Source: Actinomycetes bacterium (GTDB taxonomy: Bacteria; Actinomycetota; Coriobacteriia; Anaerosomatales; JAGXFU01). From it: a stretch of DNA of 64,000 nucleotides. Shown piece by piece: positions 36,201-51,677 of this stretch; the stretch's first letter is position 1, and each line of letters starts with the position of its first letter. The notes under the pieces are model-generated. The model saw nothing but the letters and a program-made list of their open reading frames with translations. It was not told the origin of the DNA and ran no database searches. The stretch is from the NCBI GenBank assembly GCA_024637115.1, contig JAGXFU010000014.1:6524-70523 (forward strand), read 5' to 3'. The position numbers and the translations under genes are program-made.

Positions 36201-36635
36201 ATGGACGCTTTGGTGATATGCATCGGGAACAAGGCGCGCGGGGACGACGGCGTAGCCAGACTGGTTGGGGAACTCCTCGAGTCGAGGCTCCCCGCCGGTG
36301 TCACGCTCATCAACGAACCACAGCTCGATATCGTAATGGCCGAGGAGATCGCGCAGGCGCGTTTCGTGGCCTTCGTTGATGCCGAGCGTCGCAACGATCC
36401 GCCCGTGGCGGTAGACGACGTTGTAGCGGGCACAGCAGGCACACACGCACACGCCATCGACCCGCCGGGCCTTCTCTCGCTCGCAACCACCCTCTATGGG
36501 GCCGCTCCCCCGACGGTACTGGTCAGTGTCGCAGGCCCGCACATGGGGCATGGCGAAGGACTCTCACACACAGCACGGGCCGCCTCCGAAGAAGCGGCCC
36601 GCGTTACGCTCGAACTACTTGACCAAACGCGCTAG
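36201..36635 (+). CDS. Hydrogenase maturation endopeptidase (HycI/HoxW/HyaD family)
   Basis: IGNKARGDDGV, FVDA, HAH; adjacent to the [NiFe] hydrogenase genes. Confidence 0.85.
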   Translation: MDALVICIGNKARGDDGVARLVGELLESRLPAGVTLINEPQLDIVMAEEIAQARFVAFVDAERRNDPPVAVDDVVAGTAGTHAHAIDPPGLLSLATTLYGAAPPTVLVSVAGPHMGHGEGLSHTARAASEEAARVTLELLDQTR

Positions 36636-36877
36636 CGTCCCATCGAGTTCCACTGTCGAAGCGCTTCTTCTGCACCCGAAGCGCCCCACATATCGACCAC
36701 TCGCTGATCGCTCGTGATCGCTTTGCACAACTTCTCGTATCCAGTTGCATCCATGCCCATGGTATTGGCGCCGGACGCGTTTGATGCTGAGGCGACGATC
36801 AACATCGCCACCGCCTTGCCGAAACTCGACTCGAGTCTCGTGCGTACATGGTTCTCGAAGGCGGCCTGATACTCCAT
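36632..36877 (-). CDS. Hypothetical 81-aa protein, last gene of the hydrogenase operon
   Basis: ATG directly abuts the large-subunit TAA (TAAATG); purine-rich SD within the upstream gene. Confidence 0.7.
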   Translation of the reverse strand: MEYQAAFENHVRTRLESSFGKAVAMLIVASASNASGANTMGMDATGYEKLCKAITSDQRVVDMWGASGAEEALRQWNSMGR

Positions 36878-38293
36878 TTACACCGCCCCCCTTTCTGCGA
36901 CGACCGTCCCGTCAGGATCGATCATCTCAACAACGAGCGGCATGCGACCAATCTCATGCGTCGCACAGCTGAGACACGGGTCATGCGCTCTGATGCCCAG
37001 CTCCATACGACGAACGGTTGCATCGGACATCGCCTCGTCCTTACCGGCAGAACGCACCGCTTCAAGAACGACTCCGTCAAGCGAGGCCACATTATGCGTG
37101 GTCGCAACGATGAGATTCGCGGCAGTGACGCGCCCGACGTCATCGGCCTCGTAGTGATGAATAAGCGTGCCCCGGGGTGCTTCGATCGAAGCGATTCCCG
37201 TTCCCGGACCGCGCTCCACCTTGACGCGCACGTTATCGGAGCAGATCTCGGGATCGGAAAGGATCGTTTCCATCTTTTCGTAGCAAGCGACCAGTTCGAT
37301 CATGCGAGCCCAGTGATAGGCGAGCACCGCATGAACCGGACGTCCAAGCTCTGAGCGGAAGGCCGCGAGCATCTCGCTCGAGACGGGCCCGGGCATAGAC
37401 TCAGCGAGGTTCAGTCGCGCCAGAGGACCAACGCGATACGATCCGCGCTCCGGTCCACGCGACGTGAGGAACGGTGACTTCGCATAGCTATAGGGCAGTA
37501 CGCGCTCGGTGATGCGATTCATGTAGTCCGAGGCATCGAAGCGATCTTCGATTCGTCCATCCTCGGCCATCACAGCGATTGAGCCGTCATAGAGCTCAAA
37601 CTCTCCGTTGGCTCCGAGTGTGGACATCAATGGCATTGGCGTACGGCCGTATCCGTCGTTCGCATCGAGTAGCCGGAGCGTAGACTCGCGTGCGAGATCG
37701 GCAGCCGCCACCGCATCAGACATGCCGTCGTGAACCATCTCAAGCATCTCGTCGCGCTGTTCGGCGGTGATGCCCTTGCTCATGCCGCCCGGTATCGCCG
37801 TGACCGGATGACTTGAACGTCCACCGACCATCTTGACGATGGTCTGCCCTGTCTTGCGCAGATGGATTGCTCGTGCAGCCAGGTCGGGACGCGCCTGGAT
37901 GACCCCAAGGATGTCCCGACTACCCGCGCCGTCACCGGTGAGGAAATCGGGTCCTGCGAGGAAGAAGAAGTGCAGCGCATGATCTTGCGACGTGGCACCG
38001 AGATGCATGAGTTCGCGAAGCAGTCGCGCAGCCCTCGGAATCTCGACGCCATACAGGGCGTCTACCGCCTTGACCGCTGCGAGATGGTGAGTCACCGGAC
38101 ACACGCCGCAGATGCGACTCGTGATGAGCGGCATCTCCCAAATCATCCGACCCTTGAGCATCTTCTCGAAACCACGGAACTCTGTGATATCGAAGTGGGC
38201 GTTCTCTACCTGGCCACTGTCATCGAGGAACAACGAGACTCGGCCATGGCCTTCGATACGTTTGACGGACGGGAGTCTGACGACCTCAGGCAT
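36878..38293 (-). CDS. mvhA: [NiFe]-hydrogenase large subunit, group 3c (MvhA-like)
   Basis: RIEGHG, EFRGFEK, L1 RICGVC, L2 DPCLSCATH plus a 25-aa cleavable tail, [11 protein letters not shown]. Confidence 0.88.
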
Positions 38294-39170
38294 CCTCATC
38301 ACCCCCATGGTCGTAGGCTTCTGGGAACACGGACACCGGCATCGAGAATCGATATCCGGTGCCGACTAGATCGTCAAGGAACATGATGGCTCCTGCCGGT
38401 AGCACCGCTGCAAGCGCATCGATCATCTTGGCACCCTGTTCAAAATCGTGACGGCTCGGGCCATGGCACCCGCGGCACGGAACGCCTGCACCCGTGCAGA
38501 GCGCGCCGCAACCTTCTCGGGTCATCGGCCCCATGCAGATGACGCCCTGTTCCAGGAAACACAGTGCCGGATCGATCTCATCAAGTTCCATGATCCCGTA
38601 CACGGCATCCGTGAGGAACTCCGCTGTCGGCTCGAGCAGTGCTCGCTTCTCGCGAGCGCACTCGTCGCACAAGTTGCGTCGAGGCAGATCCAAATCCCGC
38701 CCTTCGACCACGTTGGTCAGAGCCGAGATGATCGCCTCAGTCTCCGGCGCACAGCCAGGGATCGAGATATCGACCTCAACGACGTCAGAGAGCGCCTTGA
38801 CGCGACGGGTCAGCTTGGGCAGCCCTTCGCTGGGCTTGTCCTCACCGTAGACGTCTTCGAGCACTTCTCGCGTGGGATACAAGTTGCGCAGCCCACCGAT
38901 GCCTCCGAGAACCGCACAAGATCCCAACGCGATAAGTGTCTTGGATGCAGCGCGCGCGGCGAGCAGCTTTCGCTCGTCCATTTCAGTCGTGACAGCACCT
39001 TCCACGATAACGACATCACATTCAGTCAAGTCGTCCTCTGCGAGAATCGGAGAAGCGACCAACTCAACCTTGCCGAGGAGGTCTAGAAGGCCCTCGCCAG
39101 CGTCGAGCAGGGAAACGTAGCATCCCTCGCAGCCACCAAGAACGACGTGAGCCAATCTCGGTTTACTCAT
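38286..39170 (-). CDS. mvhG: [NiFe]-hydrogenase small subunit (MvhG-like)
   Basis: GCEGC, GSCA, PGCAP, CDEC, CFLEQG, CMGPMT, GCGALC, PCRGCHG. Confidence 0.88.
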
Positions 39171-40777
39171 TGCGGGCCTCCTTTCCCATTGTCGAAACTA
39201 CCGATACTGGTGAATACCTCATTGACCTGTTCAACGAATCTCTCGCCCTCGAATGGGGAGATATCGATGATTCGCAAACGCCCGTCGTCGATGTTGCGAG
39301 AACGAAGGACCGTGCGCAGCAGGTTGATTCGGCGATCCATGTCAAGATTGCCGATGAGATTGTGGCAGTGGCCCTCGCGGCACCTGAAAACGGTAACGCC
39401 GTCAAAGCCCTGCTTGAACGCCTCAAGCACATAAAGCGTATCGAGTCGTCCTCCACAGGGAATGCGGATCGGCAGGAATGAAGCCGGATACGATCCGTTG
39501 CCTGCCTGAACAGACACGCTCGCATGATCGCCTGCAGGATAACCACATCCGCCGCATAGGAATCCGACAACTTTGTCCCCGCCCTGCGTATCTACCTCCG
39601 CAAGCGTGCGAATGGCTCCAATGAGGTAGTCATGCGGTGAGTTCACGATATCCCGCGCACCCACAGGGCAGGAGACTACGCATTTCCCACAACCCCGGCA
39701 GCGACGAATATCCACATGGGACAGACCGTCCTCACCAATGCTGCAAGCTCCGAATGCGCATGTCTTTACGCACGATGCGCACCCACCGCAGAGCGTCTCA
39801 TCGACCTGCGAGACATCAACGAAGTGGACGGTCTTGGGTTGCGAGAGCTTCAACACAAGAGCGAGCGCCGCAGAATCGGCGGCTGACACCTTTGTTGCAA
39901 TCTCTTCTGAGGCCCCGCGAATCGGCACGACCATGATGCCCGAGTCGACTGTTTCGGCAGGATGCGTACTTGGATCAATGGATCGCGCACGACCCTGATC
40001 ATCGATGTCAACCTTGAAGTGCTGACGCAACTCCTCGATCCACCCCGGTTCATCGGGGCGCGCAAGCAGCAAGCCGCCCACTCTGAACATCGCACTGCCC
40101 GTTGGAGCAGCCAGAGTGACGGAGTAGTCTCCGAGCCATCCGCTGCCATCAGAGAGACGGGCATCATCCACAAACTCAGCATTCGGGTGACCCGATACGA
40201 ACGATACGGTCGCCTTGAGATTCGCGCTGTCCTGGACACTTCGAAGGCCGGCTCCCCTGTCGGCAACGACGACCTTATAGCCGAGTTGCAGGAGTCGCTG
40301 AGCGGCAACCATGCCCTCAGTCGTGGCGCCAAGGATCAGAACCGAATGCTTTGGGTCGGTCTCGATGCCCTCAACGACCGGTGCCAGCGTTGCCCGCAGA
40401 CTGGCAACCTGAATCAGGGCTCGTGCCTTCGAGGTGGCGCCCACCGGATCGTCTGCGTGCACCAAGGCGACCTGCTCAAGGACATTAGCCGCAATCACAC
40501 GATTCGGATTGAGCCCCGCGTCGATCAGTCTCTGCTTGAGGTGTTGCCCCGAAAGACTCCGGGTGTAGTGCTCGATGGAATGCCCCGCGAGTACCACAGC
40601 ATCGAGATCGGCGTCGGAGATATCGCGAATCATCCGTTCTTGAGCGGCAGGATCGAAGAAGTCTTCAAAGACCCTTACGACCGCCGCTGTCTCATCCATG
40701 CCCTCGATCGCGGCGTCAACATCGACGATACCGTCGAGCTGACCCGAGCACCGGGACACATACAGGCCTAGTGGCAC
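39167..40777 (-). CDS. Degenerate HdrA/QmoB-like scaffold fused to a 2x[4Fe-4S] ferredoxin and an MvhD [2Fe-2S] domain
   Basis: HdrA-like GLNPN, NVLEQVALVH and ATSKA; CGGCASCVKTC and CRGCGKCVVSC; MvhD GFLCGGC, RIPCGGR, CREGHCH. Confidence 0.8.
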   Translation of the reverse strand: MPLGLYVSRCSGQLDGIVDVDAAIEGMDETAAVVRVFEDFFDPAAQERMIRDISDADLDAVVLAGHSIEHYTRSLSGQHLKQRLIDAGLNPNRVIAANVLEQVALVHADDPVGATSKARALIQVASLRATLAPVVEGIETDPKHSVLILGATTEGMVAAQRLLQLGYKVVVADRGAGLRSVQDSANLKATVSFVSGHPNAEFVDDARLSDGSGWLGDYSVTLAAPTGSAMFRVGGLLLARPDEPGWIEELRQHFKVDIDDQGRARSIDPSTHPAETVDSGIMVVPIRGASEEIATKVSAADSAALALVLKLSQPKTVHFVDVSQVDETLCGGCASCVKTCAFGACSIGEDGLSHVDIRRCRGCGKCVVSCPVGARDIVNSPHDYLIGAIRTLAEVDTQGGDKVVGFLCGGCGYPAGDHASVSVQAGNGSYPASFLPIRIPCGGRLDTLYVLEAFKQGFDGVTVFRCREGHCHNLIGNLDMDRRINLLRTVLRSRNIDDGRLRIIDISPFEGERFVEQVNEVFTSIGSFDNGKGGPQ

Positions 40778-40954
40778 GTTGCCTCACCCCTGTTCGGTTG
40801 ATTACAGATGGGCGCTATGGCGGGCCCACGTCATTTCCGATGTCCGGTCGGAAACAGGAACGTATGCCAAACCCTTGCATTAACCCTGTAGCAAGTGTCG
40901 GCCCCTGGGAAGGGTGAGTTGAGACACGGATAGCCGAACGGTATGGTTTCAAGG

Positions 40955-41018
40955 AGTGAGCGGCATCACATTAAGGTGTCTGAGCCGAATCACGACAAAA
41001 CGTGTGACCCCCGTCACA
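40955..41018. promoter_or_regulatory. Two CRP/FNR-family operator sites upstream of the hydrogenase operon
   Basis: TGTGA-CCCCCG-TCACA (41003-41018, perfect) and AGTGA-GCGGCA-TCACA (40955-40970). Confidence 0.6.
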
Positions 41019-41033
41019 CATTCCTCACCCCGG

Positions 41034-42086
41034 CTAGCCTTCAACGAGGCGGAGTATCTCCTCGGCAATGCCGTGGACAGGCAGAACGGTATCTACGCCG
41101 CCGAGATCCGCAGCTGCTTTAGGCATGCCCCAGACCGTAGAGGTCTTCTCATCCTGAGCGATCGTCGCGCCGCCGATGTCGTGCAGGTACTTCAGACCGC
41201 GCGCGCCGTCGGCGCCCATTCCCGTGAGGATGACCCCCACCGCACTGCGTCCGACAGAGCGGGCGACGCTCTCAAAGAGAGTGTCTGCCGACGGGATATA
41301 GAGCTGTCCCTCAAGCGGCTCGGTATGACGTATCGTGAGTCCATCCATGGAGAGATTGCGCCCCGTTGGCGCGAGATATGCCGCTCCGGGCTCCACATCC
41401 TGCCCGGGCTTGGCCTCACGCACAGAGATCTTGCATCCTGAGTCAAGCCAACTCACGAGGCCGGGCACAAAGCCATCAGCAATGTGCTGTGCGATCACGA
41501 TCGGTACCGGAAACTCCGGGGTCAACCTACCGAGGATCGCCAGCAGGGCCGAAGGCCCGCCTGTCGATGAGCCGATCGCGACCATCGAACGACCACCAAG
41601 GCGCGTTGGCCCTGTGGGAGTACCCAGAGTATGTGGAGATGGTTTGGGGCGCCTACCCGTGATGTGTGTGATTACACGAATCCGCGAGAGCACTTTGACC
41701 TTGCGGATGACTTCTTTTCCGATCGTTTCGAGATCCGCCCAATCGCGAGGCTCAGGTTTCTTGATGACTTCAAGCGCACCTCGCGCCAAAGCGTCGAACG
41801 CCCGTCCCATGCCTTCGCCATACACTGAGGACGAAACCACAAGAATCGGCGTGGGCGTGTACGCCATGATCTTCTCGGTGGCCTCGAGCCCGTCGACTTT
41901 GGGCATGTGGATATCCATAGTGACGAGATCGGGCCTCAACTGGGCAACGGCGTCGATTGCTTCCTGCCCATCTCGAACCATACCGACGACATCGATCTCA
42001 GGGTCGGTCGAGAGTATCTGGGCGAGCATCTCCCTGGCGACGAGGGAATCGTCGACTATGAGCACGCGAATCGTACGAGCAGACAT
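41034..42086 (-). CDS. cheB: Chemotaxis methylesterase CheB (REC + methylesterase)
   Basis: LIVDDS, TMDIHMP, GSSTGG, QHI, LTGMGADGA. Confidence 0.95.
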   Translation of the reverse strand: MSARTIRVLIVDDSLVAREMLAQILSTDPEIDVVGMVRDGQEAIDAVAQLRPDLVTMDIHMPKVDGLEATEKIMAYTPTPILVVSSSVYGEGMGRAFDALARGALEVIKKPEPRDWADLETIGKEVIRKVKVLSRIRVITHITGRRPKPSPHTLGTPTGPTRLGGRSMVAIGSSTGGPSALLAILGRLTPEFPVPIVIAQHIADGFVPGLVSWLDSGCKISVREAKPGQDVEPGAAYLAPTGRNLSMDGLTIRHTEPLEGQLYIPSADTLFESVARSVGRSAVGVILTGMGADGARGLKYLHDIGGATIAQDEKTSTVWGMPKAAADLGGVDTVLPVHGIAEEILRLVEG

Positions 42087-42100
42087 ATGGCTTCCCACCA

Positions 42101-44446
42101 CTAGCGGATGAGCCGCTCAACAGTATCAAGCAGCGTATCCTGATTGAAGACCGACTTGGTGATATACGCTTCGGCACCGGCCTCGATACCTTCGGCCTTT
42201 TCCTCATCTCGCTCAAGTGATGTGACAATGATGACCGGGATGTTCAGCAGCTGTGGGTCGTTCTTGATCGCGCGCGTAAGCTGGAACCCGGTCATATTGG
42301 GCATCTGTACGTCGGTGATCACCGCATCCGGCTCCAGGCCTTCACGGAGCTTCTGTAGACCCTGTGCCCCGTCCATGGCGACCTCGACTTCATAGCCCGC
42401 GGCCTCGAAAATGGACCTCTCGAGTTCTCTCGTGGTGAATGAGTCCTCGCAAATGAGGACTCTTCTGGGCCCGCTGCTCTCCTTCTCGGCAGTCATCTGA
42501 CCGTACGTGCGCTGGCCGGAACGATGACGGGCGTTGTCCATCAGGTCGGGCACATTGAGAATCGGCACCACCTCGCCGGCGCCGAGAATCGTGACTCCCG
42601 CCACGTTCACGACCTTGTGAAGATGCGACCCCAACGTCTTGATAACAATCTGTTGCTCACCCACGAGCGCATCGACAATGAAGCCCATTCGATGACCCGA
42701 GAAGCCAATAGTCGCTATGGGAATCTTGGCGCCCTCAAACCCGTGACCGGGCACGCCGAGGATATCGGTGAGTCGCACGAGAGGAACCGTTCTGCGCTGC
42801 CTGCGAATCACCTCGCGACCTTCGATCTTGATGATCTCTGAAGGATCCACCCTGAGGGTTTCCTCGACCGAAGCCGTTGGAAGTGCGTACATGCGATCGC
42901 CCACCCGGAGCATGAGCGCCCGAATGATTGCCAGCGTCAGAGGGATGGTGAGCCTGAACGTGGTTCCTTTGCCCATCTCACTCTGAACATCAAGAGAACC
43001 TTTGAGCTTCTCCACGATGAATTCGCGAACGACATCCATGCCCACGCCGCGACCCGATATCTCGGTGATGATCGCCGCAGTCGAGAAGCCCTTCTCAAAG
43101 ATCAGGTATGTGGCTTCCCTATCAGTCAGCGCGCTGGCCTCGGATTCAGAAATATAGCCCTTGCGCACCGCAGCTGCTCGAACCTTGTCCGGATCGATGC
43201 CCCGTCCGTCGTCGGAAATCTCAATGACGATGTGATCGCCCTCTTGACGCGCGGACATGCGAATCGTGCCCTTCGCCGGTTTGCCAAGCTCAACTCGGTC
43301 GGCGGCAGGCTCAAGTCCGTGATCTACCGCATTGCGCATGATGTGAACAAGGGGATCGTTGATCTCTTCGAGAACCTTCTTATCGAGCTCCGTGTCTCCA
43401 CCCTCAAGAACCAGCTCAACATCCTTCTTGAACGAGCGCGCAAGATCGCGCATCGCCCGGGGGAATGCCTGAAAGACCGTGGAGACAGGAAGCATGCGTA
43501 GCCGCATACCCTGCTCCTGAAGATCCGTCACAACGATCGAGGTTCTGGAGACGTCATCGTTGTAACCCTTAAGGAATCCGGTTTGAGCGCGCCTGCGGTC
43601 CACGAGGTATCCGTCGAGAGTGCTCACTTCATCCATGATCGAGAGCATCATGCCATCGTCATCAACGGGCACTGAATTCAGCAGCGACTTCAATCTAAGC
43701 CACGCTTGCCAGATATCGGTCAGATCATTGGCCGCCTGCCGCAGCTCGACCGTACGCTGCTCGTCCTTGATCTGAGCGATGACTACTTCGCTCACCAAGT
43801 TCAGAAGCGTGTCGATCTGCGCAGTCTTGACCCGGATCGTCGGCTGAACCTTCGCCTTGAGCGAATCCTCGCGTTGTGCCTGGCGAGATACGCCGTCACC
43901 GGAGGTCTCATCGTCGTGCACGTCCTCCAGGTCATCGACCGCTTCATCACCATCGTCGTATTCCTCGGAGGAATCAGACTCAGCCGGAGGTGCAGGTGCA
44001 GGCACAGCAGTCTCGGTCGCGACTGTCGTTTCAGGCGTACCGGCAGCGGCTTCTGCTCCACCCGCTGCCAGAGCAGACAAACGAGTCTGGAGCGCGTCGA
44101 GGTCGATCTCGAGCTTGATGTCTTTTCCGGCGTTCTCCGCCAGGTACACGATCGCGTCGAGCGCTTCAAAGAAGTAGTCGCTCATATCCGGCGTGTACTT
44201 CATCTCGCCTTCGCGCACGCGAATCATGAAGTCCTCAAGCCGATGTGCGATGTCAGATATCTCAATCAGACCGACCATACGGGAGGAGCCCTTGACCGTA
44301 TGTGCGTCGCGCATCATCTGATCGATGAGCTCTCGATTTCCCGGGTCCATCTCCAGTTGGATAACGCCTTCGTTCAGGCGCTGCAGAAGATCCTGCGCTT
44401 CCTCCTGAAACTTCCCAATAAACGCACTACGGTCGAACTCGACCAT
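42101..44446 (-). CDS. cheA: Hybrid CheA histidine kinase (Hpt-dimer-HATPase-CheW-REC)
   Basis: AHTVKGSSRM, HIMRNAVDHG, DDGRGID, GRGVGMDVV, CheW domain, C-terminal REC (TDVQMP). Confidence 0.95.
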   Translation of the reverse strand: MVEFDRSAFIGKFQEEAQDLLQRLNEGVIQLEMDPGNRELIDQMMRDAHTVKGSSRMVGLIEISDIAHRLEDFMIRVREGEMKYTPDMSDYFFEALDAIVYLAENAGKDIKLEIDLDALQTRLSALAAGGAEAAAGTPETTVATETAVPAPAPPAESDSSEEYDDGDEAVDDLEDVHDDETSGDGVSRQAQREDSLKAKVQPTIRVKTAQIDTLLNLVSEVVIAQIKDEQRTVELRQAANDLTDIWQAWLRLKSLLNSVPVDDDGMMLSIMDEVSTLDGYLVDRRRAQTGFLKGYNDDVSRTSIVVTDLQEQGMRLRMLPVSTVFQAFPRAMRDLARSFKKDVELVLEGGDTELDKKVLEEINDPLVHIMRNAVDHGLEPAADRVELGKPAKGTIRMSARQEGDHIVIEISDDGRGIDPDKVRAAAVRKGYISESEASALTDREATYLIFEKGFSTAAIITEISGRGVGMDVVREFIVEKLKGSLDVQSEMGKGTTFRLTIPLTLAIIRALMLRVGDRMYALPTASVEETLRVDPSEIIKIEGREVIRRQRRTVPLVRLTDILGVPGHGFEGAKIPIATIGFSGHRMGFIVDALVGEQQIVIKTLGSHLHKVVNVAGVTILGAGEVVPILNVPDLMDNARHRSGQRTYGQMTAEKESSGPRRVLICEDSFTTRELERSIFEAAGYEVEVAMDGAQGLQKLREGLEPDAVITDVQMPNMTGFQLTRAIKNDPQLLNIPVIIVTSLERDEEKAEGIEAGAEAYITKSVFNQDTLLDTVERLIR

Positions 44447-44476
44447 TGATGTACTCCTCCCGGCCGGGCACGCCGT

Positions 44477-45712
44477 CTAGTCGATGATTTGAAATGCGGA
44501 ACCGACCTGTGCCGATTCCTTTGCAATTGCAGACAGCTGCTCGGCTGAGCCTGCGACCTGTCGTCCGCCTGCAGCGGTCTGCTGGGCAACCGCAGCGACC
44601 TCTCGCATTGCTTTGACGACTTGATCCGTGGCGCTCTTTTGCTGCTGAGTCGCCGCAGAGATCTCTTTGGCAGCAACGGTAGTCTGTTCGATCATCTCAA
44701 GAATCTGGTCGAGAGACTCACCAGTCATGTGCGCGAGATCAACGCCGCCCTGTACCTGCTTGAGTTCTTGCTCGGTCGCGATGACAAGATCGTTCGCGGC
44801 ACCCTGAATCTCGATCATGATCGTCGAGATCTCGCTCGTAGAGTCAACCACTGACTCCGCAAGCTTTCTGATCTCGATAGCGACAACGGAGAAGCCCTTC
44901 CCGGCTTCTCCCGCGCGCGCGGCTTCGATAGCGGCATTGAGAGCGAGGATCTTTGTCTGATCGGCGATCGAGTTGATGATCTCCAGGACCTGACCGATCT
45001 GCTGACTACGCTCGCCGAGCGATAGGATCTTGTTCGCAGACGTCTGACTACGAGTCTTGATGTCTTCCATAGCGGTAAGGGTATTGAGTACCGCCTGCTG
45101 TCCCGATTCCGCACTACCGAGGGATGCCTCTGCCATGTTGACGACCTGGTTGGCATTGTCGGCAATCTGACGGTAGGTTGCTGCGAGCTCTTCCATCGTT
45201 GCCGTTGTCTGGCTGATCGATGCGGCCTGCTCGGCCGAGCCTGATGCTTGCTCCTCGGTGGCTGAGAGAATCTCGTTCGATGCCTGAGCGAGTCGCCTTG
45301 AAGACTCCTGGGTCTGCCTGATCAGATAGACGATGAGATCCAGCATCTGGTTGTACGACGTGGCAAGGACACCGAACTCGTCCTCGGACTTCACATTGAC
45401 CTTCAGACCGATCTCTCCCTGGCAGGCCGCCTTCACGCTCTCAACGACGTGCTCGAGCGGTGCCATGAAACGCTTGCCGACCTTGATGAAGGCCATCATC
45501 CAGGCGAAGCCGAGCACAATGATCGCAAGGACCAGAGCACCTACCTCGACAACTGAGACGTCCGCGAACGCAGAGCCGATATCCCCACCGGTAAGAATAA
45601 TCATGGCAATGGTCCACTGAAGGGCGTTGAACACAAGGAACAGCCCGGCGATTGCCAGTGAGTACTTCCACAGGAACTTGCTGCGGAACTTGCCGACTAT
45701 CGATGAAAACAT
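44477..45712 (-). CDS. Methyl-accepting chemotaxis protein (2 TM, tiny external loop, HAMP)
   Basis: [46 protein letters not shown] methylation sites. Confidence 0.93.
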
Positions 45713-45735
45713 TGTGCCCTCCTAGTGGCGGGGTG

Positions 45736-46293
45736 CTACGAATTTGCAACGATCGGTTCAAGAATCCGATCGATATTGACAAGACCAATCAGCCGACTCT
45801 CCCAGTACACAGAGCCAGCAATGAACTCAGCTGAGACTTTGTCCATCACCGAAAGTGGCGGCTCAACCCCCTCGCGTGGAATATCGAGGATGTCACCGAT
45901 TTCATCGACAACGATCGCAGTGGTGCACTCCTCATTCTGAATGACGATCGCAGGAGCTAGAGCGATGTCCGACGTGAGCTGGCCCAGACGCATGAGTTTC
46001 GCGACGTCCATCACGGAGATGATCTCTCCTCTGATGTTCACAACACCGAGAATGAACTCAGGCACGCACGGAATCGGAGTGATCGCGTACTCCTGATAGA
46101 TCTCTCGAACATCAGAGACGTAGACCGCGTACCACTCGTCACCCAGACGAAAGAGCAGGATGCCCACACTATCTCCGACGTCCTCGCCAGTAGCTTCATG
46201 GGCAAGGGAATCGGCCCTGCGGGCAAGCACCTCATCCGCAGTCGCCGCGATAGACGAACCGGGAACCAATCCACGTTCTACGATCTCCGCCAT
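45736..46293 (-). CDS. cheW: CheW adaptor
   Basis: LLFRLGDEWYA, ITPIPCVPEFILGVVNIRGEII. Confidence 0.92.
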   Translation of the reverse strand: MAEIVERGLVPGSSIAATADEVLARRADSLAHEATGEDVGDSVGILLFRLGDEWYAVYVSDVREIYQEYAITPIPCVPEFILGVVNIRGEIISVMDVAKLMRLGQLTSDIALAPAIVIQNEECTTAIVVDEIGDILDIPREGVEPPLSVMDKVSAEFIAGSVYWESRLIGLVNIDRILEPIVANS

Positions 46294-46296
46294 GAG

Positions 46297-47007
46297 CTAG
46301 TACCCTCCCCCGACGAGATTGATCGACGCAAGCAGCCGATCGACGTCGAGCAGATACACAAGCTGATTGTCCATTCGACACACACCGATCATACGATCCG
46401 CGAGTCCGTGCATCTTGGGCGGTGCCGCAAGACATCCCTCGGGTAGCCCGACCACATCCTCGACCTCGTCAACCAGAAGCGCGACGAGTTGGCCGTGCGA
46501 CCTGCAGATAATCATAGGTGTATCGAGATGATACTCCTGTGATGTCATACCGAGCAGTGTTCTGATGTCGAGCGCGGGGATGACCTGTCCGCGAAGATTG
46601 ATCATGCCAACGAGACCGTGTCCTGAAGATGGCACCTGAGAGAATGCCACAATCTGCTGGATCTCTTGAACGCTGTCAATGCCGATCGAGTAGCGCTGAT
46701 CCGCAAGATGAAAGACGATCATCTTGTCGATCATCGCTTCCATTGAATCCTCAACAGGTGACGGCGTGACGTTCTCCGCCCCCGCGACTTCAACAGGGAT
46801 AGCATCCTTCTGGGGTGCATCCACGGACACGGGCGCCTCCACGGTCTCTTGCGGGACTTCTTTGACAGGCTGAGCTTCCGCTGTCGCTTCTGATGCTGAC
46901 TTGGTCGCCTTCACTGGTTTCGGCTTCTTGCCGACCTTCTCTTTAGCCTTCGCCTTCTTGCCGGGCTTGGGCTTGGGCTCATCATCTGTCTTCTTGCGTG
47001 TCGCCAT
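46297..47007 (-). CDS. cheW: CheW adaptor with Lys-rich N-terminal extension
   Basis: FHLADQRYSI, GMINLRGQVIP; about 90-aa N-terminal low-complexity region. Confidence 0.88.
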   Translation of the reverse strand: MATRKKTDDEPKPKPGKKAKAKEKVGKKPKPVKATKSASEATAEAQPVKEVPQETVEAPVSVDAPQKDAIPVEVAGAENVTPSPVEDSMEAMIDKMIVFHLADQRYSIGIDSVQEIQQIVAFSQVPSSGHGLVGMINLRGQVIPALDIRTLLGMTSQEYHLDTPMIICRSHGQLVALLVDEVEDVVGLPEGCLAAPPKMHGLADRMIGVCRMDNQLVYLLDVDRLLASINLVGGGY

Positions 47008-47011
47008 TGAC

Positions 47012-48913
47012 TCACTCCGCGAATCTCAGTACGCGGTTGAGCTCTTCTGCACTCACGAGCCCCGACCTGACCTTTGCGAGACCTGAAGTCACCATCGGTC
47101 GCATGCCTGCCGCCTGTGCCGAGGCCGCGATCTCCTCGGCAGAATCGGCCCGTGAAATGCGTGTGCGAACCGATTCGGTGAACGGTAGGACTTCGAAGAT
47201 GCCCGTGGCACCCTGGAATCCAGACTGCGCGCACGTGGCGCATCCACGACCGACCTTGGAGACGAGGCCTTCCTCGGCACCGGGAATAGTTGCGGCCATG
47301 ACGCCATCGTCATCCGAGGTGCAGTGCGGACAGTTCATGCGTACAAGCCGCTGCCCCACGCCAAGCGTAAGTGCCGAGGAGAGAGAAACCGGCTCGGCAC
47401 CGAGATCGAGCATGCGACGCACGCCTGAGACGATGTCCCCACCGCTGAACGTCGCAATCACGAGCTTCCCAAGGCCAGCCGCTTCGACGGCCAGGTGAAC
47501 ATCCTCAACGGACTGCATCGCGTCGATCGCCATGACATCGGTATCCTGACGGATTCCGGCCGCGAAATACGACTCGGCGCCGACCGACTCACCCGGATTC
47601 ACCAACACCTGGGCTACAGCCGGAATCTCATAGTCGATCGAGCGCTCGACGGAGTAGACGGTCTTTCCAACTTTCGCGGCATGGTTGAGGAGCGCATAGT
47701 ACGTGGAGCTGCGTCCACCTGCAACCGGGCCGCATACCAGAAGGAGCCCACGCCCACGCTCGACCATCGCATGCAGTGCACGTACCTCGGCTTCGTTCAT
47801 ACCGAGCTCAGCAAGCCCGCGTGGGACAGGCTTGTCGGAGGTGAGCGTCAAGACCACACGCTGACCCGCAACGGTTGGAACCGCTGAGACGGTGACCACC
47901 AGATCGCGATCGGCGATCTTAGCTTTCACCCGACCAAGGGCAGGCCGAGAAGACTGCACCGAGGATAGACGCGCGTAGCTCTTGAATCCGTCAACGAGCG
48001 CCGACTGCATCGAGAGTGGAGCGCTGGCTATCTTCTCAAGTTTGCCGCCGACACGATAGACGAGGAAGAAGTCTTCCTTGTACGGCAGGAGGTGAATACG
48101 GCCGACGCCGCGTCGGACAGCATGGTCGAGAATCTCAGAAACGAGTCCGGCGACCTTGCGGGCATCGGCAACGGCAAGCACGTCGAGATCGATCTCTGGA
48201 GGTCCATCCGGCGCAGCGGTCTCAACGACTTCCTCGATACCCTGCGTGGGCTCGGGGAGATCAGGCGGTTCCTGGGCAGGTATCTGAGCCACTACGGGCG
48301 TTGACTCGGTCAGCGGGGCTTCAAAGAAGTCACCCGCGTCGATCTCGGTGTCGACTCCGAGGAAATCCTCCACACTCGGGGCCGGAGACAGAACATGTTC
48401 AGTCGATTCGGCGGTTTCGGGCATCGCTCCGACTTCGGGCTCAAATGCAGGAGCGGCCGGTACCGACTCTCCTGGAGCGTCTTCGTAGTACTGGTCGATC
48501 GCACGGGTGACGTCACCAGCATCAGAAAGGACTGCCTCGACCTCCAGACCGAGCTCAACGGCGAGGGAATCAAGCTTGAACACGTCCATCGCATCCCCGA
48601 TGACTACCGTGAGCATGCCCTCGATCTCAAAGAGCGGCAGCACACTTCTGCTCCTGGCAAGCGATACCGGAAGCAGGAGAAGCGCCTCGCTATCGGGCGC
48701 ATAGCTGGATAGGTCGACTCGAGGTATGCCCAGATCCTCTTCCATGGCACTCTCGAGATCCGCCGATGTGACGATGCCGCGCTGTAACAGGACATCGCCC
48801 ACAGTGATTCCAGCGCTCGCCGCCGCTTCGATGATCGAGGAGATTTGCTCGACCGTAAGCAAGCCGGCATTCACCAGCGCATCAAGAACCCTGGATGTGA
48901 TTGTTTCCGACAT
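47012..48913 (-). CDS. PilB/GspE-family protein with degenerate ATPase motifs (predicted pseudo-ATPase)
   Basis: T2SSE_N-like N-terminus, RQD, QRLVR, CPHC...CATC, GIFE; Walker A is GPVAGGRS. Confidence 0.85.
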   Translation of the reverse strand: MSETITSRVLDALVNAGLLTVEQISSIIEAAASAGITVGDVLLQRGIVTSADLESAMEEDLGIPRVDLSSYAPDSEALLLLPVSLARSRSVLPLFEIEGMLTVVIGDAMDVFKLDSLAVELGLEVEAVLSDAGDVTRAIDQYYEDAPGESVPAAPAFEPEVGAMPETAESTEHVLSPAPSVEDFLGVDTEIDAGDFFEAPLTESTPVVAQIPAQEPPDLPEPTQGIEEVVETAAPDGPPEIDLDVLAVADARKVAGLVSEILDHAVRRGVGRIHLLPYKEDFFLVYRVGGKLEKIASAPLSMQSALVDGFKSYARLSSVQSSRPALGRVKAKIADRDLVVTVSAVPTVAGQRVVLTLTSDKPVPRGLAELGMNEAEVRALHAMVERGRGLLLVCGPVAGGRSSTYYALLNHAAKVGKTVYSVERSIDYEIPAVAQVLVNPGESVGAESYFAAGIRQDTDVMAIDAMQSVEDVHLAVEAAGLGKLVIATFSGGDIVSGVRRMLDLGAEPVSLSSALTLGVGQRLVRMNCPHCTSDDDGVMAATIPGAEEGLVSKVGRGCATCAQSGFQGATGIFEVLPFTESVRTRISRADSAEEIAASAQAAGMRPMVTSGLAKVRSGLVSAEELNRVLRFAE

Positions 48914-48927
48914 GACGTCAGCCCGAT

Positions 48928-49308
48928 CTAGCCGGTGACCTTATCGAGCTCCTCGGCAACCGCCGATAGAAGCCTTTCAGGCTCGATCGGCTTAGTGAGG
49001 TACTGGTTGGCGCCGGTTCGGATACCCGTTGCCATTGCCTGCTCCTCGGTCTTAGCCGTGAGCATGATGATTGGAATTCCTTTGTACTTCTGGTCAAACT
49101 TGAGAAGACGGCACACTCGGTACCCGTCAAGTTTGGGGAGCATGACATCGAGCAGGATCAAGTCAGGCATCTCTGCCCGAGCCTTCTCCAACGCCTCGGC
49201 GCCGTCGGCAGCAGTGATGACCTCGTAGCCGCCCGATATCAAGATCGCCTTGATCATCTCAAGGATGGTCGGGCTGTCATCGACCGCAAGGATGCGCGCG
49301 TTCGCCAT
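48928..49308 (-). CDS. Single-domain response regulator (CheY-like)
   Basis: AVDDS, LLDVMLP, MLTA, YLTKP. Confidence 0.93.
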   Translation of the reverse strand: MANARILAVDDSPTILEMIKAILISGGYEVITAADGAEALEKARAEMPDLILLDVMLPKLDGYRVCRLLKFDQKYKGIPIIMLTAKTEEQAMATGIRTGANQYLTKPIEPERLLSAVAEELDKVTG

Positions 49309-49347
49309 ACCGTAACTCCCCTCTGCATCATGTGCACCTACCGGTAT

Positions 49348-50916
49348 CTATCGCCTTTCCGGCGGGGCATCTTTAGGTCGTAAACTGCCCTTTCGACACT
49401 CTATCAGACTACGCTCGCAGGTCTTAGCCAAAAGGTCGGGTCTGAACCCGCCCAGAAACACCGTCCACTCGCCCTCGGGATTCTCGTACAAGTAGCGCAT
49501 CGTATTCTCATATTCACGGCATGCGCTGTCCTCGGCACCCTGGTGTTTATAGAGGTTCGCCAGAGAGAAATGTGCAAGGACGAACGCGGGGTCGATGTAG
49601 ATCGTCTTCTTGAGCTCCGAGATGGCTCGAACCGAGTCACCTTGCTGCTGGTAGATGATACCGAGCACATAGCGAGCCGCAGGCAGAAGCGGCTCGATTG
49701 CGAGCGCCCGTTGACACTCGGCGATCGCGGCATCCATCTGCCCGCTGTCCGCATGGGCGAACGCCGTAAGCAGGTACGCCTGTGGGTTGTTCGAATCGAG
49801 TTCCAAGACGGCCGAAGCGGCCTCGAGAACCGCTGCCGTGCGACCATCCACAGACGCCTCCCGCGCGGCACGCAGGAGTGATTCGATTTCGCCCGCCACG
49901 TCACCGGCCGATTCGGACGGAATGAGTACGGGTTGTGGTTTATCGACACCCGGAGGCAACACAGGGCGTCGAGGTTCTGTACGCTTTCTGGCACGCCTGC
50001 GCGCAGCCGCCGCCGGCGTGGTCTCCCGCATCGAGACCGCCTCGGCAAAGTTGTAGTGCTTCTTTGGGAATGGTTTTCGATAGAGGAATACGCCCCCGAC
50101 CTCAACGGCCTCGAATCTGTCCGAGATGCTGGTGAGCGTCTCGGAGTGACCGATGAACAGATAGCCACCCGGATTGAGACTGTCGAAGAAGTTGTTGACC
50201 ACGCGTCGCGTTGATTCCAGGCGAAAGTAGATCGTGACGTTGCGGCAGAAGATCACATCCCAATTCCCCATGAGCGCGAGCGGATATGGCTCCTTGATGA
50301 GATTCTGGTACTGAAAGGTCGTGAGCTTGCGTACCTTGTCGACAACTCGGTGTCCGTGAGCGGTGGGCTCAAAGAACCGCGTTGACGAGGAGGTGGGAAC
50401 GCTCAGGAGCCCCCGAGCCGGATAGACACCGGCTTTGGCCTTGAGCAGCGCATTCGTTGACACATCTGTGCCCAGCACCTCGAGCTTGTACCCAAACGGC
50501 TCCAGGCCGGAGTCCAACAGCGTCATCGCGATCGAATAGGGCTCCTCGCCAGTCGAACAACCCGCCGACCAGACACGGAAGTGACGATCGTATTCGCCTT
50601 TGCTTTCCATGATCTGAGGAATGATCTGCGTGCGAAGCGCCTCAAACTGTGCGGGGAATCGAAAGAAGCTCGTCTCGTTGATCGTGACGAGGTTCATAAG
50701 CTCTTTGAATTCCTCTTCATCTGACGTGAGCATCGCGAAGTAGTCAGCAAGAGAGTCGAATCCAAACCGCGTTGCGCGCGTGATGAGCGAAATCCTGAGC
50801 GAATCGGATTTCTGCTCCTCCAGGAAGATGCCAGAATGCTTATGTATGTAGTCCCTGAATCGACCGAACTCCTCGGGAGTAAGGTCTTTAGAGAGGCTTT
50901 CGCCGTTTCCGGGCAT
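49348..50916 (-). CDS. cheR: CheR methyltransferase with C-terminal TPR repeats (WspC/FrzF-like)
   Basis: INETSFFR, WSAGCSTGEEPYS, FCRNVTIYF, TPR helices. Confidence 0.93.
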   Translation of the reverse strand: MPGNGESLSKDLTPEEFGRFRDYIHKHSGIFLEEQKSDSLRISLITRATRFGFDSLADYFAMLTSDEEEFKELMNLVTINETSFFRFPAQFEALRTQIIPQIMESKGEYDRHFRVWSAGCSTGEEPYSIAMTLLDSGLEPFGYKLEVLGTDVSTNALLKAKAGVYPARGLLSVPTSSSTRFFEPTAHGHRVVDKVRKLTTFQYQNLIKEPYPLALMGNWDVIFCRNVTIYFRLESTRRVVNNFFDSLNPGGYLFIGHSETLTSISDRFEAVEVGGVFLYRKPFPKKHYNFAEAVSMRETTPAAAARRRARKRTEPRRPVLPPGVDKPQPVLIPSESAGDVAGEIESLLRAAREASVDGRTAAVLEAASAVLELDSNNPQAYLLTAFAHADSGQMDAAIAECQRALAIEPLLPAARYVLGIIYQQQGDSVRAISELKKTIYIDPAFVLAHFSLANLYKHQGAEDSACREYENTMRYLYENPEGEWTVFLGGFRPDLLAKTCERSLIECRKGSLRPKDAPPERR

Positions 50917-50927
50917 GTCGCCCCCCG

Positions 50928-51677
50928 CTATTCCGCGATCGAGACTTCGTCGGATGCACCGAGCTTCTCAATCAAACCAGCCGCAAACATCCCGTAGAGG
51001 ATTCTGGCTGTCTCAAAATCGTTGTAGCCGGTCAACTCAACGAGCTCACGGACAGTCCTGCCACCGTGCAGGAAACACAAGAGCATCCACTCTTTGGGCT
51101 TCAGATGAATCTCCATGGACTTGTCGCCGGGGGCAGAGGCCATGATAAAACGTGTATCCATGGAGGGAATCTTCTGACGGATTCGATTCCACAGTTCAAG
51201 GCGACGAGCCGCCTCCATGATGATGTTCTCAACAGATACCGAGATGCCGATGTCCTCGTCTTCACACGCCTCATCGGCCTCGAAACGCAGCTCCCCCTCT
51301 TCCCAGCGAAAGAGATCGAACAGCGTGTCATTGATCTGCTCCTGAATGAAGTTCTCAAGTACTTTTGAATCGAGATAGCCCTCGTCGACAAGAATCTGAC
51401 CCAGCCGGCGATTGGCCTTTTCCTTCTTCTGAATCTTTTGCAGACCCAGTGCCTGACGCAACTGCTTCTCGGAGATGACGCCCGCCTTGACCAGGCGACG
51501 CCCAAGCGACTCCCGGTTCCAGTTGCTCGACGCAAAGAACACTCGGCCCTTCTTGATGCAGACCTTGCCTTCGGCATCCGGGCGCTCCATGTACAGCGTG
51601 CCGGTCTTGCGACCGGAAGAAAGCAGCCGAAACATGTCTTCGAGCGAAAAGTCCCTGAGATTGCCCTCGAGTGCCAC
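50928..51677 (-). CDS. DUF4388 (PATAN-like) protein with internal MshEN-like tandem motif
   Basis: LEGNLRDFSLEDMFRLL, KTGTL, LFRWEEGELRF; SLGRRLVKAGVI...ALGLQ and RLGQILVDEGYL...IQEQ. Confidence 0.85.
   Translation of the reverse strand: MALEGNLRDFSLEDMFRLLSSGRKTGTLYMERPDAEGKVCIKKGRVFFASSNWNRESLGRRLVKAGVISEKQLRQALGLQKIQKKEKANRRLGQILVDEGYLDSKVLENFIQEQINDTLFDLFRWEEGELRFEADEACEDEDIGISVSVENIIMEAARRLELWNRIRQKIPSMDTRFIMASAPGDKSMEIHLKPKEWMLLCFLHGGRTVRELVELTGYNDFETARILYGMFAAGLIEKLGASDEVSIAE

Follow-up and report, generated by a model that had tools for sequence, protein, structure and literature searches.

A cofactor-depleted HdrA remnant in a widespread group 3c-like [NiFe]-hydrogenase cassette: a candidate electron-wire subunit with recurrent chemosensory linkage

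What is left of the heterodisulfide reductase subunit HdrA once its flavin site and most of its iron-sulfur clusters have disappeared, and which function could the remainder have in a hydrogenase? This question is raised by a stretch of 64,000 nucleotides (hereafter the window) from an actinomycete of the GTDB lineage Coriobacteriia, Anaerosomatales, JAGXFU01 (assembly GCA_024637115.1, contig JAGXFU010000014.1), in which a [NiFe]-hydrogenase gene cassette is led by the gene of a 536-aa fusion protein, here called mini-HdrA. According to its motifs, mini-HdrA is very probably flavin-less and non-bifurcating. On balance, it is best regarded as a putative electron-wire or adaptor subunit of a distinct and widespread subtype of group 3c-like [NiFe]-hydrogenases, the cassette of which would signal the availability of H2 or the redox state.

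The fusion protein mini-HdrA and its conservation

The gene and the domains of its product, which contain two remnants of flavin adenine dinucleotide (FAD)-dependent HdrA, are located as follows:

39167..40777, minus strand: mini-HdrA/ferredoxin/MvhD fusion (P0001), 536 aa, GTG start, no internal stops, leading the hydrogenase cassette
40373..40777, minus strand: remnant of the HdrA N-terminal domain, residues 1-135, all four cysteine positions of the HA3 cluster substituted
39818..40372, minus strand: remnant of the thioredoxin-reductase-like FAD domain, residues 136-320, Rossmann beta-alpha-beta with GATTEG
39623..39817, minus strand: 2x[4Fe-4S] ferredoxin domain, residues 321-385, Pfam Fer4, counterpart of the HdrA C-terminal ferredoxin domain
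39203..39580, minus strand: MvhD domain ([2Fe-2S]), residues 400-525, PF02662, E=8e-29

In phmmer comparisons with the PDB, residues 3-221 of mini-HdrA align to HdrA residues 14-241 (8rvu_a) or 6-233 (5odc_A) and residues 244-382 to HdrA residues 505-642, with the ferredoxin part corresponding to HdrA 570-642. Between residues ~221 and ~244, approximately 263 HdrA residues (~242-504) are replaced by about 22. The deleted stretch comprises the central domain, the inserted ferredoxin (HA5/HA6), the CxGSR/CSxxCC (HA4) motif and the segment with K409 and E356, two residues critical for stabilizing the flavin (FADH-) during bifurcation (PMC12054007). The motif (CVGSR...YCSRICC) and the inserted ferredoxin are visible in true HdrA-like proteins, e.g., P0153, and both lie within the deletion, which accounts for their absence and for the length of 536 aa noticed in a first-pass annotation of the sequence. 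Even on its own, the N-terminal part still matches HdrA (E=5e-14 to 2e-11).

The same annotation had listed substitutions of cysteine and FAD motifs in this HdrA-like part, and every one of them is present in the HdrA alignments. At residues 8-11, SRCS takes the place of CHCG; DFFDPAAQ stands for YMCADPGQ, AGHSIE for AACSPR (with an extra 5-aa insert) and LEQVALVH for REHCSWVH, the respective cysteines being replaced by F41, H66 and V103. The FAD fingerprint IGGGVAG reads LGATTEG (GATTEG being residues 150-155), the GGR and DCSICIL stretches of HdrA are missing, and the later FAD motif hhAG..GPKDI is represented by GIMVVPIRG. Pfam recognizes only Fer4 (324-375) and FlpD/MvhD (403-525; 100.5 bits at a gathering threshold of 22.3); no flavin or pyridine-nucleotide family was detected by Pfam in mini-HdrA and its first 320 residues remained without any match, unlike true HdrA-like proteins, which do match Pyr_redox_2/FAD models. 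Among the NCBIfam models, HdrA2 (NF040770, E=1e-63) fits best, yet its 215.5 bits fall far short of the curated cut-off of 1100, as do the 102 bits for HdrA (NF041778) of that of 1400; neither in NCBIfam nor in Pfam do the N-terminal 320 aa match a known family.

The C-terminal half presents the opposite state. Throughout an alignment of 31 family members, the ferredoxin cysteines 330, 333, 336, 340, 360, 363, 366 and 370 as well as the MvhD cysteines 408, 441, 466 and 471 are invariant and C411 is nearly invariant, and all five MvhD cysteines align with those of MvhD in 5odc_D, in agreement with the earlier observation of an intact 8-Cys ferredoxin and MvhD domain. In the same alignment, no cysteine of the N-terminal domain is conserved and only the first glycine of the fingerprint, G150, is invariant within this motif, with Thr/Ser and Glu at fingerprint positions 3 and 5 in most members and hh(V/I)P in place of the hhAG motif family-wide. 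The AlphaFold2 (AF2) model is compact and confident (mean predicted local distance difference test score, pLDDT, 91.6; predicted template modeling score, pTM, 0.90). Foldseek relates it to HdrA (E~1e-25, TM-score ~0.6) and to MvhD (TM-score 0.86-0.91, root mean square deviation 1.3 A), with weaker matches to thioredoxin and lipoamide reductases (TrxR/DLDH), and the fold of the FAD domain is thus predicted to survive without its motifs. Overall, the alignments show that mini-HdrA descends from an HdrA-MvhD fusion of the HdrA2 type by loss of four of six [4Fe-4S] sites, the central domain and the FAD fingerprint. What it keeps is the [2Fe-2S] site of MvhD plus both [4Fe-4S] sites in the ferredoxin domain derived from the HdrA C-terminus.

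This state is shared by a large family. A search of 5.8 billion proteins returned 205 homologues, mostly from metagenome-assembled genomes (MAGs) of Coriobacteriia/Actinomycetota, at least 120 of them being full length (about 530-545 aa) with 55-90% identity. An exhaustive search with the N-terminal part alone added about 20 full-length relatives, all of ~520-540 aa and 26-37% identical in this part, including members from Actinomycetota, Chloroflexota, Gemmatimonadota and Armatimonadota. Scanning one genome per species revealed 214 relatives in more than 10 phyla, with Planctomycetota, Desulfobacterota, Bacillota (including MAGs assigned to Thermincola), Acidobacteriota, Latescibacterota and Methanosarcinales as additional carriers, i.e., lineages with very different metabolisms. 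Within the host class, 34 of 301 genomes possess the cassette, and one large family of the order is devoid of it. At two loci, the mini-HdrA cassette occurs as two adjacent copies (L044, 2175-6362 and 6688-9341; L052, 10001-14270 and 14430-18304, inverted).

Pairwise ratios of non-synonymous to synonymous substitution rates (dN/dS) among close relatives amount to 0.25-0.48 for the N-domain remnant (residues 1-135), 0.28-0.48 for the FAD-domain remnant (residues 136-320) and 0.07-0.38 for the cluster-bearing domains. The HdrA remnant is under purifying selection. That the degeneration itself is conserved, as the first-pass annotation had suggested to check, is consequently borne out by the homologue surveys, the 31-sequence alignment and the dN/dS of 0.25-0.48, and close homologues, instead of being intact, share the degenerate state.

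The hydrogenase cassette and its signalling neighbours

The genes of mini-HdrA, the small and large hydrogenase subunits and an 81-aa protein (orf81) form one translationally coupled cassette, next to which a protease gene is found:

38286..39170, minus strand: MvhG-like [NiFe]-hydrogenase small subunit, 294 aa, NF045875 VhuG 9e-67, PF01058, start overlapping the mini-HdrA stop by 4 nt
36878..38308, minus strand: MvhA-like [NiFe]-hydrogenase large subunit, 476 aa, NF041785 VhuA 8e-118, best PDB match MvhA 5odc_F with 404 bits
36632..36877, minus strand: orf81, four-helix protein of 81 aa, directly abutting the large-subunit gene
36201..36635, plus strand: hydrogenase maturation endopeptidase, TIGR00072 9e-16, convergent with the cassette

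The large subunit features the motifs RIEGH, CxxC (RICGVCP), PRGxxxH and DPCxxCxxH (DPCLSCATH), the last being followed by a 25-aa C-terminal extension. In NCBIfam, the large subunit is matched best by VhuA and the small subunit by VhuG, both under the equivalog cut-offs. By similarity, the two subunits can be considered group 3c-like, with MvhA and MvhG as closest relatives and the NiFe-binding CxxC pairs intact. The cassette is kept in nearly all of 80 loci compared, and the maturation protease adjoins it in most of them.

From Actinomycetota to Methanosarcinales, orf81 occupies the same position directly after the large-subunit gene. Its family consists of 99 database clusters, every one named 'hypothetical', and neither Pfam nor NCBIfam contains a family for it. 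The AF2 model displays four helices (pLDDT 91.4), for which no fold match was obtained in the PDB. The presence of orf81 tracks the linkage to chemosensory (che) genes described below (25/29 vs 3/17 loci, a comparison uncorrected for phylogeny).

Upstream of the cassette, the window holds a chemosensory gene cluster and, at its end, a hairpin:

41034..51677, minus strand: chemosensory gene cluster identified by Pfam, upstream of and on the same strand as the cassette, 256 bp away
41002..41019, minus strand: hairpin GTGTGAC-GGGG-GTCACAC (7-bp GC-rich stem) with GTTTTGT tail, just past the cheB stop

According to Pfam, the cluster encodes a DUF4388 protein, CheR-TPR, REC, a PilB-like/MshEN protein, two CheW proteins, a methyl-accepting chemotaxis protein (MCP), CheA-REC and CheB, the MCP featuring two transmembrane segments and a HAMP domain and lacking a ligand domain. 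A cluster of this type stands beside the cassette in about 22 related loci. For a wider survey, 82 loci were screened with the window's own proteins; the 52 loci whose flanks spanned 8 kb or more were scored as linked if two or more kinds of che genes lay within 10 kb. By this measure, 31/52 loci are linked, spread over at least nine lineages which differ in gene order, strand and CheA architecture. Upstream che genes on the same strand are typical of Coriobacteriia, while the same type of cluster lies downstream of the cassette in Ca. Geothermocultor. Loci of Armatimonadota, Planctomycetota and the Gemmatimonadota type likewise have downstream che genes, Thermincola/Bacillota show a convergent che operon and a divergent MCP gene, and in Desulfobacterales che genes flank the cassette on both sides. 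A homologue of 31% identity (from a protein cluster with a Gemmatimonadota MAG sequence) is followed by REC, MCP, CheA-REC and CheW genes. The linked CheA is a hybrid protein in some lineages and a plain one in others, and the family tree requires at least 10-12 changes of linkage state. As linked genomes contain approximately 1-6 CheA genes per 1.4-12.5 Mb, adjacency by chance amounts to ~1-3%, and the binomial probability that 9 or more of ~21 lineages are linked is P~4e-9 at a null of 3%. The conserved linkage with cheA, cheW and mcp across lineages is what would be expected of a chemosensory input module.

A single co-transferred module of hydrogenase and che genes can be ruled out by the differing CheA architectures and gene orders. 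No sensor domain is common to the cassette-linked MCPs, which range from soluble proteins with the signalling domain only to sCache receptors, many of them lacking any ligand-binding domain. An apparent fusion of CheB and mini-HdrA (P0154) was judged to be a mis-called or frameshifted gene.

A second kind of signalling protein is physically joined to the hydrogenase in a well-supported sister subclade from Desulfobacterota/Acidobacteriota, in which the small subunit is extended to ~610 aa by an N-terminal Hanks-type Ser/Thr kinase. The Pkinase domain of this MvhG-like subunit is recognized with E-values of 1e-50 to 1e-54 and its motifs (G-loop, VAIK, HRDIKPAN, DFG and SPE) are intact. The fusion recurs in 41 database clusters, named only 'protein kinase' or as generic hydrogenase subunits. 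It was located at the following positions:

L078:11619-13472: kinase-fused small subunit, Pkinase match
L081:11627-13453: kinase-fused small subunit, Pkinase match
L086:8973-10805: kinase-fused small subunit, Pkinase match
L091:11512-13479: kinase-fused small subunit, Pkinase match
L090:7334-9163: likely kinase-fused small subunit, by length only

Two loci devoid of che genes carry other genes just upstream of the cassette, i.e., a REC-DUF4388 gene (L090:4612-5529), which shares its DUF4388 domain with the leading gene of the window's che cluster, and a gene for an FHA-GAF-adenylate/guanylate cyclase (L078:7828-9489).

Proposed function and competing explanations

Following the architecture of 5ODC, electrons from H2 would pass the [NiFe] site, three [4Fe-4S] clusters of MvhG and the [2Fe-2S] cluster of MvhD to reach the 2x[4Fe-4S] domain, where the path would end; since no flavin is predicted in mini-HdrA, bifurcation would not take place. 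The non-bifurcating wire proposed in the first-pass annotation is hence supported by the lost FAD fingerprint, the lost HA3-HA6 sites and the deleted K409/E356 segment. The H2-dependent redox state of this Fe-S chain could then be read out via the cofactor-less HdrA remnant and/or orf81. Candidate readers are chemosensory proteins, i.e., MCPs without ligand domains, CheW and CheA; for the sister clade, this part would fall to the small subunit's own Ser/Thr kinase domain. Within the host genome, the cassette would feed the CheA-REC/CheR-TPR/PilB-like system directly upstream. The working principle would be analogous to that of the regulatory hydrogenases HoxBC-HoxJ, with different kinases. Judging by the gene context across phyla, the evidence leans towards a signalling module which senses H2 or redox state, and a hydrogen/redox sensor is more likely than an energy enzyme. 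There are about even chances that the cassette represents an unrecognized, group 3c-derived class of [NiFe]-hydrogenases that sense H2, with remnant and orf81 as the signal-transmitting surface.

Several points weigh against this interpretation. The absence of FAD is predicted from motifs, and the catalytic motifs, the cleavable C-terminal extension and a dedicated protease are all kept, which is not the case in group 2b sensors. The window contains neither a fused signalling domain nor a physical link between hydrogenase and Che proteins, and the hairpin at 41002-41019, not called by a consensus terminator scan, is a possible weak terminator parting the che from the hydrogenase transcript. 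About 40% of the well-flanked loci are without che genes. Conversely, an orthologous che cluster exists in 125/301 genomes of the class, compared to 34 with the cassette. In the cassette-less loci L104, L105 and L106, cheB, murI, a gene of the metallo-beta-lactamase fold, rph and rdgB run contiguously, and the cassette plus protease (window 36201-41033) appears as a clean 4.6-kb indel between cheB and murI. Because these cassette-less relatives show the synteny of the window minus 4.6 kb, the cassette is an optional add-on to this Che system, and within the host order the che adjacency counts as one inherited event. A dependence of the Che cluster on the hydrogenase was rejected, the cluster being nearly universal in the order and the cassette optional.

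The strongest competitor of a sensory function, held to be possible with appreciably lower probability, is a purely metabolic, non-bifurcating cytoplasmic hydrogenase in which electrons would be traded between the 2x[4Fe-4S] domain and soluble ferredoxin or a different carrier, with supply or relief of the Wood-Ljungdahl pathway as one example of a purpose; the che genes would then reflect co-regulation or indirect energy taxis via metabolism. All catalytic and maturation features are present, as is hypD in the genome, which moreover encodes carbon monoxide dehydrogenase/acetyl-CoA synthase (CODH/ACS), the corrinoid iron-sulfur protein (CFeSP), MetFV and formate dehydrogenase (FDH), i.e., enzymes in need of low-potential electrons. 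The che-less loci and the che clusters without cassette also fit this explanation. It leaves unexplained, however, the recurrent and variously arranged che linkage in at least nine lineages at an expectation of ~2-3%, the fusion of small subunit and Ser/Thr kinase in the sister clade and the strict retention of a cofactor-less remnant of 320 aa, and the cassette spans lineages of very different metabolism. Besides, the host genome (2.3 Mb, 92% complete) holds three other [NiFe] large-subunit genes in addition to hypD, and energy-yielding use of H2 is therefore not tied to the mini-HdrA enzyme. One large-subunit gene of the genome is of the [NiFeSe] type (C17:98287-99777) with one in-frame TGA, probably encoding selenocysteine. 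A second che cluster (C1:40742-46970) is situated ~11 kb from another [NiFe] large-subunit gene (C1:57991-59991), which is probably a coincidence.

A cryptic flavoprotein, whose Rossmann remnant still binds FAD or another dinucleotide and which bifurcates jointly with an HdrA-like or HdrBC-like protein from a separate gene, is improbable. In its favor, the fold, the invariant G150 and an acidic residue following beta-2 persist for the most part, the fingerprint is GGGRRG or GSGEAA in a few remote members, and complementary HdrA heterodimers were proposed for anaerobic methanotrophic (ANME) archaea (PMC9012536). The genome also has a GltD-like/MvhD protein beside MetFV and an HdrB-C fusion elsewhere. 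The family-wide state of the FAD motifs argues against flavin binding, with Thr/Ser and Glu at fingerprint positions 3/5, GGR gone and AG changed to (V/I)P, as do the deletion of the K409/E356 segment and the missing flavin match in Pfam, which true HdrA-like proteins do obtain. As regards partners, no conserved flavoprotein gene and no hdrBC genes occur near the cassette in 80 loci, no gene with a CCG domain lies within the window, and a search with the HdrA model revealed no canonical HdrA in the host genome. Three CCG proteins are encoded there, namely two GlcD-like fusions and an HdrB-C fusion adjacent to genes of glutamate synthase; since the searches with the HdrA and CCG models gave no suitable candidate, the idea that the genome supplies a canonical Hdr partner from another locus was discarded. 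The first-pass annotation had assumed that the dead HdrA part is kept as a docking scaffold, possibly for a separately encoded flavoprotein. The retention fits the selection data; docking of a flavoprotein lacks support, as no separately encoded partner was found. The partners that are conserved, namely orf81, chemosensory clusters and the fused Ser/Thr kinase, point to signalling and not to a metabolic outlet.

The two relevant gene regions of the host genome deserve a description of their own. The HdrB-HdrC fusion (C13:241716-246685) has 446 aa with two CCG domains and two 4Fe-4S motifs and immediately precedes split glutamate synthase (GOGAT) genes of the archaeal type and glnA, so that an unusual way of feeding electrons into GOGAT is conceivable. 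The second MvhD-bearing open reading frame of the genome belongs to the MetFV/Wood-Ljungdahl cluster (C9:30059-50706; CODH/ACS, CFeSP, FolD, MetV/MetF, NuoE/F-like proteins and FDH), which holds a 659-aa GltD-like/Fe-S/MvhD fusion with the only other MvhD domain of the genome.

Recent pseudogene decay or an assembly or frameshift artefact of a normal hdrA2, suggested by nothing but the missing motifs themselves, can virtually be dismissed and is refuted by the homologue survey and dN/dS: the frame is open, the length of ~535 aa consistent, the same state recurs in more than 200 homologues from many assemblies and phyla, dN/dS of the remnant is below 0.5, and the AF2 model is confident and compact.

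Significance and comparison with known systems

Group 3c hydrogenases are routinely labelled 'Hdr-linked, electron-bifurcating' in metagenomes (HydDB, PMC5037454), and this label is adopted where the metabolism of subsurface Actinomycetota, Bacillota, Planctomycetota and other groups is modelled. A large and phylogenetically broad subset of group 3c very probably operates without bifurcation and probably outside energy conservation. If the sensory function is true, a third lineage of H2 sensors would be added to [NiFe] groups 2b/2c and [FeFe] group C, and it would be the first of those wired to CheA-type and Hanks-type kinases. Moreover, it would offer a molecular route for 'hydrogenotaxis' and H2-controlled behavior in anaerobes of more than 10 phyla. 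Methanococcus maripaludis has been shown to perform taxis towards H2 (PMC3817446); in the searchable, partial literature, no paper was found in which the receptor is named. The same literature, with its partial coverage, contains no description of the mini-HdrA architecture or its che/kinase linkage; the earlier statement that no such module is described holds to this extent, but databases do contain hundreds of members, generically annotated as 'hydrogenase iron-sulfur subunit'. Clonable candidates in cultivable hosts are available from Thermincola (the loci examined being MAGs assigned to the genus) and Phosphitispora fastidiosa. Apart from its function, mini-HdrA is a clear case of the HdrA redox enzyme domain being kept under selection after loss of every cofactor.

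HdrA2 ('type Ia HdrA') of the Methanosarcina HdrA2B2C2 complex resembles mini-HdrA in the order of N-domain, FAD domain, 2x[4Fe-4S] ferredoxin and fused MvhD. In contrast, mini-HdrA lacks ~260 residues, the cluster cysteines of the N-domain and the FAD fingerprint, and is encoded with mvhG/mvhA instead of hdrB2C2. QmoB of QmoABC is likewise HdrA-like with a C-terminal MvhD-like domain and is a flavoprotein working together with QmoA/QmoC and AprAB; in mini-HdrA the flavin motifs are gone and no qmoA/C or apr genes are nearby.

The MvhAGD-HdrABC complex (5ODC, group 3c) provides the closest solved relatives of the large subunit, the small subunit and MvhD, and the wire from MvhD to the C-terminal ferredoxin of HdrA is predicted to be retained in mini-HdrA. 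Nevertheless, FAD, HdrBC and HA3-HA6 are missing from the mini-HdrA system according to its sequence, MvhD is fused, a gene for an extra 81-aa subunit is present, and the gene context is chemosensory instead of methanogenic or Hdr-related. HydDB lists group 3c solely as Hdr-linked and bifurcating (PMC5037454); a flavin-containing HdrA coupled to HdrBC, by which the group is defined functionally, does not appear in the cassette.

In HydDB, sensory [NiFe]-hydrogenases are confined to groups 2b and 2c, and the sensors termed 'chemotactic' or 'phosphatase-linked' all belong to [FeFe] group C (PMC5037454). With the group 2b enzymes HoxBC/HupUV and their kinases HoxJ/HupT (mechanism summarized in PMC6978683, class in PMC5037454), the mini-HdrA cassette would share the report on H2 to a protein kinase and an Fe-S chain without metabolic acceptor. 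It differs in being 3c-like and in keeping the C-terminal extension and the protease; moreover, the candidate kinases, suggested by gene context, are of the CheA or Hanks type and not PAS histidine kinases, and among the cassette neighbours, which are CheA-type, no HoxJ-like gene was found. The [FeFe] groups C2 ('chemotactic') and C3 ('phosphatase-linked') are comparable in their predicted H2 sensing via MCPs or Ser/Thr phospho-signalling (PMC5037454). Their connection is realized by fused PAS/MCP domains, whereas here a [NiFe]-hydrogenase of the 3c type with an HdrA-remnant subunit would take this role.

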